UHGV virus genome: UHGV-0150051
Origin: a virus
Reading direction: 5' to 3' (one strand)
DNA length: 33,122 nucleotides
Shown here: positions 18,071 through 18,856 of the stretch, piece after piece
Layout of the letters: each line of letters opens with the position of its first letter
Position numbering within the stretch: the first letter of the stretch is position 1
Program-made: the position numbers and the translations under genes
Notes under the pieces: model-generated
What the model saw: the letters and a program-made list of their open reading frames with translations, nothing else
Told to the model about the DNA's origin: nothing
The model's database searches: none

Positions 18071-18856
18071 TTATGAGTGATTTTTATTTGATGCTTTGTA
18101 TTCTACAACCTTCTTATTGGCGTAAAGGAATTTTGTATATGACAGGAATATAACCAGACCTGAAATGAAATAGATGAGGGATATTATTAATAATGCTTTT
18201 TTTTGGCTGTTATTATCTTTAATTTCCTGACTTAACCATTCCGAGTCCTCCTCGTTTAGCCGTAAGAGCTTATTGCAGGCGATCTCAGGAAGTGTGTCTT
18301 TTATAAATATGTTTCGTAGCCTCTTGCAATCGGCAAGGCTATAAGTTTTATTGAATTCAACTGTTTTATTGTTGAAGGATAAAAGAACTTTGTCACTATA
18401 AACATAGTACATCATATTTTTATATGGTATGCCTATGGCATCTCTTACTATAGCGGATTGTTTGTTGTGTATATAACATGCGAAGAGAATATAAATAATG
18501 CTGGACAGAATTACAATTATTGTTTTAATTATGTGTGGTGGTTTTGTTATGTCACCCCAGAAGCGAGTAAGAAAAAAATACGATGTTTTTAGTTTTCCAT
18601 CAATCAGCCCCTGCTGTATCATTCTCACATCTTCGATGCCTGATACATTGATTCCGTTAATTATTTTAAATAGTTGAATGTCGCGCCATTTTTTGTCGAG
18701 CATTTTTAACTTTCTGTCTGAATACTCAAAATTGAAATGATGTGCAATAAACCTCATAAGATTACTTTTACCAAAGGTAATAAATGTTAATGCTATTAAT
18801 AAAAATAGATACAAAGAGATAAACCACCACGCATTAGTCACATTATCACTGAACAT
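18071..18856 (-). CDS. Moron: predicted inner-membrane protein with three TM helices; candidate superinfection-exclusion or abortive-infection protein
   Basis: 261-aa ORF, AT-rich, antisense to the late operon, at the P2 orf30 position. Hydrophobic helices at about res 9-28, 107-127 and 223-243. RBS GGAGAG 5 nt upstream of the ATG. Confidence 0.8.
   Translation of the reverse strand: MFSDNVTNAWWFISLYLFLLIALTFITFGKSNLMRFIAHHFNFEYSDRKLKMLDKKWRDIQLFKIINGINVSGIEDVRMIQQGLIDGKLKTSYFFLTRFWGDITKPPHIIKTIIVILSSIIYILFACYIHNKQSAIVRDAIGIPYKNMMYYVYSDKVLLSFNNKTVEFNKTYSLADCKRLRNIFIKDTLPEIACNKLLRLNEEDSEWLSQEIKDNNSQKKALLIISLIYFISGLVIFLSYTKFLYANKKVVEYKASNKNHS

Follow-up and report, generated by a model that had tools for sequence, protein, structure and literature searches.

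In P2-like phages three sites commonly carry horizontally acquired genes: the TO and Z regions and the position of orf30 (PMC3091744). The cargo of the first two (tin/old at TO and fun at Z) resembles orf30 in being AT-rich, non-essential and variably present at a fixed junction, but those hotspots hold assorted unrelated systems, whereas in one genus after another the slot between the tail genes S and V is occupied mostly by members of a single, deeply diverged family. In P2, orf30 has been described as a 786-bp ORF that forms an insertion between S and V and is of unknown function; WPhi and L-413C are without it, phiCTX has another uncharacterised ORF there (PMC2771037), and R18C carries a different, 741-bp ORF at the same position (PMC6823313). 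The latter, ORF16 of R18C, was considered as a hidden member of the Orf30 family and rejected: it lies on the forward strand and aligns to the family with an hhalign probability of only 0.5%. Both the gene, known since the 1990s, and the variable locus are thus already on record; recent surveys of P2-like hotspots focus on other loci and do not treat the S/V junction, and our search of the literature for an orf30 phenotype returned none that had been assigned. A catalogue of roughly 8000 P2-like prophages exists (PMC13586616).

The closest described analogue in organisation is SieA of phage P22, which, like Orf30, is the product of a prophage accessory gene placed antisense within a block of virion or injection genes and is a multi-pass inner-membrane protein. 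The three known types of SieA are less than 30% identical and share the same slot (PMC10883804). P22 sieA has its own annotated promoter and adjoins the genes for the ejection proteins, and its product excludes P22-like phages, i.e. its own family. The two proteins differ in size (164 aa in SieA against 261 aa in Orf30) and show no detectable homology: searched with a 26-sequence Orf30 profile, hhalign gave a probability of 0.3% for P22 SieA and 0.2% for SieB.

The DNA analysed here (the window) is the 33,122-nt virus genome UHGV-0150051, which constitutes a complete P2-like prophage extending from int (50-1063) through D (31909-33072). An ATG-start ORF of 261 aa is located at 18071..18856 on the minus strand, antisense between two plus-strand genes: S, the tail completion gene (17547..17999; PHROG 26 and P2 annotation), and V, the baseplate spike gene (18940..19575; PHROG 6142/11 and P2 annotation), whose start we place, by comparison with P2, at the ATG at 18940 and not at the mechanically called TTG at 18922. 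A Shine-Dalgarno sequence, GAGGAG (18863..18868, minus strand), can be read 6 nt 5' of the ORF's ATG. Both the antisense placement and this ribosome-binding site had been reported in the initial annotation and are borne out. A further ORF of 128 aa (18856-19242, minus strand) runs antisense to the 5' part of V, its terminal TAATG sharing one base with the start codon of the 261-aa ORF; in GC-rich DNA read antisense, such a frame has probably arisen by chance. Scans of the whole window for Rfam families and for tRNAs returned no matches.

Alignment identifies the 261-aa ORF, with what amounts to certainty, as an allele of bacteriophage P2 orf30. The segment comprising S, the ORF and V matches 76 Peduovirus-type phage records, with DNA identity over its full length reaching 99.1% to Peduovirus P24A7b and 94.5% to P2 (AF063097). 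At the protein level the identity is 100% to the P24A7b protein and 84% to P2 Orf30 (AAD03281.1; PHROG 2407), which agrees with the window ORF in its position between S and V, its orientation, its length of 261 aa and its flanking putative terminator and Ogr site; the 16% of residues that differ between the two alleles fall mainly in TM1, TM2 and the periplasmic domain. The window orf30 has a 100% DNA match in a prophage of E. coli KFu014, and AF063097 annotates the counterpart in P2 as 'orf30: Orf30, nonessential'. The suggestion that the insertion might mark an additional cargo site therefore falls away, since the ORF is P2 orf30 and the S/V junction had already been described as the third variable locus (PMC3091744, PMC2771037, PMC6823313); the accompanying statement, that the site is distinct from the tin/old and Z/fun hotspots, agrees with its being listed as a separate locus (PMC3091744).

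Those two hotspots are also occupied in this prophage. The TO (tin/old) hotspot, which lies between A and Q, has in place of tin/old just one gene, for a 735-aa AAA_13 ATPase (6138-8345, minus strand; Pfam E 5e-104). In PADLOC this ATPase falls into the candidate defence family PDC-S06 (E 4e-254), and its C-terminus gives a weaker PrrC-like match. At the Z/fun hotspot, after the tail-fibre gene and on the opposite strand, lies a gene for a 372-aa family-2 glycosyltransferase (24434-25552, minus strand; E 1.6e-28), which may be cargo for LPS or O-antigen conversion and for which the PADLOC scan gave no match. The tail-fibre gene H itself (21366-24224, plus strand) is long, encoding 952 aa and ending in a Peptidase_S74 intramolecular chaperone domain (residues 780-842); no separate G-like assembly ORF follows it in the window.

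Across 5426 complete E. coli genomes, the orf30 segment was recovered in 464 (482 places, about 9% of the genomes), always on the chromosome and always annotated 'hypothetical protein'. The P2-type V gene is found in 1574 of the complete genomes (1795 places), so that about 27% of P2-type V loci carry orf30. It is absent at the other three quarters or so, viable phages among them; in pro483, for instance, the S-V spacer measures only 66 bp, and other relatives are likewise without the gene. When the window is aligned to such relatives, homology stops just past the S stop codon and restarts at the ATG of V: the entire S-V spacer (18004..18939, from pairwise alignments and the pro483 annotation) is unlike theirs. 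The idea that the ORF might be a core gene of all P2-like phages can accordingly be set aside, and orf30 displays the odd composition and the variable presence among close relatives that are among the features of a moron in the sense of Hendrix. The GenBank label 'nonessential' and the viable relatives without the gene suggest, indirectly, that this accessory gene is dispensable for phage growth.

The gene also evolves differently from its neighbours. Nearly all E. coli matches to V reach 95% identity or more, while those to the orf30 segment spread between 100% and 88%. In a comparison of eight phage alleles, all of which retain an intact frame, dN/dS for orf30 lies between 0.26 and 0.61, around 0.45 (dN reaches 0.13), while S and V give dN/dS values of about 0.06 and about 0.15; one near-identical pair of alleles gave 1.02, a value which, resting on five differences, is uninformative. 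The allelic changes are mostly in TM1, TM2 and the periplasmic domain. Thus, orf30 is under purifying selection that is relaxed or partly diversifying; positive selection at the level of the whole gene was rejected on the value of about 0.45. The intact alleles, the range of dN/dS and a homologous family extending down to about 20% identity establish orf30 as a real gene. Its want of a function, a Pfam family and an obvious promoter might have led one to suspect an ORF that arose by chance, or is decaying, within AT-rich DNA of foreign origin, but 261 codons have stayed open although AT-rich DNA is full of stop codons, dN/dS is below 1 across frames that are all intact, and 44 proteins (E <= 0.001) share its conserved motifs, cysteines and topology, to which a confident AF2 fold can be added; the open frame, the selection, the family and the fold effectively refute that reading, and we assign it a negligible probability.

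The non-coding sequences on the two sides of orf30 had been annotated in P2, where AF063097 labels a hairpin (9397-9433) as 'putative rho-independent terminator for O operon' and, just upstream of orf30, a 28-bp element (10239-10266) as 'activator binding site; activation of pV promoter'. As no indels separate the window from P2 here, both annotations transfer directly. The hairpin (18029..18065) lies between the stop codons of S and orf30, with arms of 17 nt (18029-18045 and 18049-18065) that are complementary at 16 of 17 positions around a 3-nt loop, and has a folding energy of -29 kcal/mol (z -6.0) for the plus strand and -23.3 kcal/mol (z -4.7) for the minus strand. The initial annotation had placed a 9-bp inverted-repeat terminator at this point: the inverted repeat is indeed there, but its arms are 17 nt long. 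It has no U-run and was not called by a simple terminator scan; it could end transcripts arriving from both sides. An imperfect 18-nt direct repeat (18012-18029 and 18065-18082; AGAGGCTGATGCGCAATT and AGAGGCTTATGAGTGATT, 78%) brackets the hairpin and may be a trace of module joining, or chance.

On the other side, the Ogr activator-binding site of the late promoter P_V maps, by transfer from P2 with an offset of +8632, to 18871..18898 on the plus strand. Its dyad, TGT-N11-ACA, is found at 18875-18891, with the CACAACA half-site kept in five related loci, and the site begins only 15 nt from the orf30 start codon. The spacer between orf30 and V is 83 bp and is filled by P_V, so a promoter for orf30 must either overlap P_V or sit in the 5' end of V, an arrangement that would make orf30 transcription and late transcription mutually exclusive. 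Scanning upstream of orf30 for a sigma-70 promoter gave no match at 9 or more of 12 positions and none that was convincing. Two candidates were discarded: promoter-like matches inside the AT-rich ORF, which are likely compositional, and Ogr as a divergent activator of orf30, since transcription beginning 55 nt from the dyad centre would start within the orf30 reading frame itself.

The protein contains three hydrophobic segments (Kyte-Doolittle 19-residue means of 2.1-2.6) separated by stretches of 78 and 88 residues, in line with the three transmembrane helices and two soluble regions of about 75-95 aa initially proposed. On the minus strand these are predicted as TM1 (residues 10-29; 18770..18829), loop 1 (residues 30-107; 18536..18769), TM2 (residues 108-130; 18467..18535, with an AF2 helix at 108-133), loop 2 (residues 131-218; 18203..18466) and TM3 (residues 219-241; 18134..18202), followed by a basic C-terminal tail (residues 242-261). 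Across 26 family members the N-terminal tail has no Lys or Arg, loop 1 carries a net charge of +5.0 per sequence, loop 2 one of -0.8 and the C-terminal tail one of +2.1, which predicts periplasm, cytoplasm, periplasm and cytoplasm, respectively. Loop 2 has a mean of exactly two cysteines per sequence, with C194 in all 26 members and C177 in 23. Taken together, the charge distribution and the two conserved cysteines predict a topology with the N-terminus out and the C-terminus in.

The AF2 model of the window protein (pLDDT 84.9, pTM 0.72) renders loop 1 helical, and loop 2, with four beta strands and helices, is predicted to be a disulphide-bearing beta/alpha periplasmic domain. Loop 1, the predicted cytoplasmic helical domain, as judged from charge, entropy and the model, has the lowest column entropy of any region and bears the most conserved motif, W/F-D-x-Q-L-F-K/R-x-x-N-G-I-N-V...D76...G87, represented in the window by W57-R-D-I-Q-L-F-K-I-I-N-G-I-N-V71, D76 and G87. 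Across the family G68 and G87 are invariant and Q61 and D76 nearly so. No pattern of catalytic residues is conserved, in keeping with the catalytic motif having been judged absent at the outset.

Profile searches place the window protein squarely in phrog_2407, a family labelled 'unknown function' (E 6.3e-143, residues 1-261 of 261), which all 26 aligned relatives match as well. Scans against Pfam and NCBIfam produced noise only (the best being DUF6535 at 19.7 bits against a cut-off of 23.9), PADLOC-DB 2.0 gave no defence family at E <= 1, and a sequence search of the PDB found nothing. Searches with the AF2 model against solved structures and predicted viral folds gave no significant match, so far as the model goes an indication that the fold is apparently new. 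The Pfam, NCBIfam, PHROG, PADLOC and fold searches revealed no kinship to a structural phage protein or a host housekeeping protein, either of which had been held to count against a moron, and PADLOC, the SieA and SieB comparisons and the structure searches revealed no sequence or fold similarity to known exclusion or defence proteins. Pfam DUF6216 (PF19723) is of similar length (a 270-position profile), is likewise without known function and shows weak N-terminal matches to 5 of the 26 family members; individually these all fall below the gathering threshold (24.3 against 27.3 bits for the best relative), and the window protein gives no match. DUF6216 is also named in a 2026 preprint about loci for antiviral immunity that H-NS silences (bioRxiv 10.64898/2026.09.05.749240).

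While a word-indexed protein search yielded five close clusters, an exhaustive HMM search, required for the distant members, recovered 44 proteins at E <= 0.001, about 20 of them full-length and 17-32% identical. Reciprocal tblastn searches from two distant members returned only orf30 of the P2 clade (E down to 1e-14). In P2-like prophages of Yersinia enterocolitica, Pectobacterium brasiliense, Cronobacter dublinensis and Sodalis sp., homologues with 20-35% identity occupy the same slot antisense between S and V, as does a homologue in each of two metagenomic enterobacterial prophages. In these prophages the neighbouring R, V, W and J proteins share 55-82% identity with their counterparts in the window, and S shares 45-49%. 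At the S/V junction the homologue is accompanied by further, unrelated cargo: in Pectobacterium, two small ORFs and a protein with an ORF6N domain; in Cronobacter, a DUF7480 protein and another of 180 aa. As to S, its versions in other P2-like prophages (loci L013, L019, L021, L023 and L024) are 49-65% identical to one another and only 45-49% identical to that of the window; on these alignments S seems to have been replaced, or to change more quickly, in the P2 clade.

Altogether, 8 of the 11 lineages examined have the homologue beside V in a P2-like prophage. In one decayed prophage two tandem paralogues of 256 and 252 aa adjoin V (locus L028, 4001-4771 and 4900-5658), the second of which matches the family profile with an hhalign E of 3e-54; J of this prophage is truncated beside a host chemoreceptor gene. 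The exceptions to the slot include Pantoea sp. S-LA4 (locus L003, 5759-8777), in which cI, a yebY-like gene and int precede the homologue, all on one strand, with successive gaps of 8 and 22 nt and then an 8-nt overlap with int. The shared strand, the short gaps and the overlap make it appear to be the last gene of a lysogenic operon. In Pantoea sp. ARC270 (locus L006, 7775-8777) the homologue is kept at the same chromosomal site with no prophage and with a 79-aa fragment upstream; its downstream neighbours are an acetyltransferase gene and aroF. One further member is encoded among ordinary host genes on a contig with no phage gene.

The composition of the family is as constant as its position. 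In the window the GC content of orf30 is 0.32, compared with 0.55-0.60 in S and V and 0.50 overall; along the ORF the profile stays at 0.32-0.36 against 0.55-0.62 on either side, and GC3 is 0.35 against 0.59-0.65 in the flanking genes. The AT-richness initially noted is therefore evident (0.32 against flanks of about 58%), and it extends to all family members, with GC at 0.30-0.35 against 0.52-0.60 and GC3 at 0.25-0.35 against 0.53-0.79 in the flanks. Being present in every member, it is a stable family property and not evidence of one recent import. An origin in the amino-acid content of membrane proteins was rejected, as GC3 is equally low and LysA, the phage's own membrane protein, has 59% GC. 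Such persistent AT-richness may place orf30 under H-NS control.

These features lead us to a tentative proposal, to which we give clearly less than an even chance: that Orf30 is an inner-membrane protein expressed in the lysogen that excludes other phages at the envelope. Its accessory status, its fast evolution in a fixed slot, the link of the Pantoea homologue to a lysogenic operon and the predicted topology argue for it, and the analogy to SieA lends it a precedent, while the mechanism itself we put forward with the same reserve. The protein would be made by the prophage in the lysogen and, located at the cell envelope, would exclude unrelated phages, in the likeliest case by hindering the passage of their genomes across the inner membrane. 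Its variable periplasmic and membrane parts would meet the invader, and the conserved cytoplasmic domain would contact a constant partner. With a promoter that overlaps the Ogr-dependent P_V, expression of orf30 would be expected to stop once the late genes switch on.

On P2 lysogens, P2 vir, P2 Hy dis and P4 form plaques normally, which implies that injection via the P2 tail is unblocked and that any exclusion would have to target phages with other tails. In this respect Orf30 would differ from SieA, which excludes its own family. Other observations tell against a defence role. The phage AC1 carries an orf30 allele, yet the protection given by its lysogen was fully explained by a TIR system at another hotspot (PMC9122126); the papers searched assign orf30 no phenotype; the searches found no known exclusion or defence protein that resembles Orf30 in sequence or fold; and the sigma-70 scan ahead of the ORF gave nothing convincing. 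The exclusion or abortive-infection role raised in the initial annotation is a reasonable hypothesis, which neither homology nor a published phenotype backs.

Since the most conserved part of Orf30 is cytoplasmic, a sensor or effector role, or one directed at the host, fits that domain as well as a block to entry does. The host-directed version, in which Orf30 would be a lysogenic-conversion membrane protein acting, for example, by modulating an inner-membrane transporter, on envelope stress signalling or on colonisation fitness, we consider unlikely, though a serious contender. It would account for the conservation of the cytoplasmic domain, for the Pantoea homologue, which sits in a cI-int operon and is retained after prophage loss, for the member that stands beside ordinary host genes on a phage-free contig, and for the lack of any noted defence phenotype among lysogens of P2 or AC1. 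Yet most of the lineages keep the gene beside V in P2-like prophages, the speed at which it diverges, its duplication in tandem and its replacement in the manner of a cassette are seen more typically in conflict genes, and neither Pfam nor NCBIfam links it to a component of a host pathway. Domains predicted on both sides of the membrane in a multi-pass protein would also suit an abortive-infection effector or sensor that is silent in the lysogen and, upon an infection cue, depolarises or permeabilises the membrane so that the cell dies before the invader's cycle is complete. The membrane proteins of known defence systems are usually suicide effectors (PMC9122126). AT-richness at all codon positions would favour the silencing of such a toxic gene by H-NS. 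However, orf30 stands alone, its product shows no domain recognisable as a sensor, a nucleotide binder or a pore former, it has no PADLOC match and no partner gene is conserved across its loci, which makes this role improbable in our estimate.

An accessory function in the P2 cycle itself appears to us similarly improbable: orf30 might tune lysis or DNA entry and exit at the inner membrane, take part in the interplay with the satellite P4, or be an insert that supplies or insulates P_V and the O-operon terminator. The conservation of the slot beside V over a large evolutionary distance, the proximity of the start codon to the Ogr site, and a spacer whose terminator and Ogr site differ from those of orf30-less phages are all consistent with such a function, but the P2 annotation calls the gene nonessential, most E. 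coli P2-type V loci do without it, the copy in Pantoea is located near int, well away from the tail genes, and its antisense orientation to both late operons means that it is not part of late transcription. To roles other than those named here we leave a slim chance. Returning to exclusion by a lysogen-expressed envelope protein, the broader claim that the family is an unrecognised class of prophage envelope defence, with a new fold and locked to the S/V junction across Enterobacterales, which excludes heterologous phages at the inner membrane, strikes us as doubtful, and a shade more so than the proposal for Orf30 itself.

What is novel here is the picture of a position-locked, AT-rich and fast-diverging family with a predicted topology and an apparently new fold. 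Should Orf30 prove to serve neither defence nor conversion, it would simply be a long-known orphan gene. If the broader claim is true, the S/V junction would be a third defence locus of P2-like phages, overlooked by current surveys of their hotspots. Orf30 is among the few genes of the model phage P2 without a function, and the data on its family make this orphan a testable candidate for exclusion or conversion, and the S/V junction worth adding to the loci that are mined in P2-like phages.
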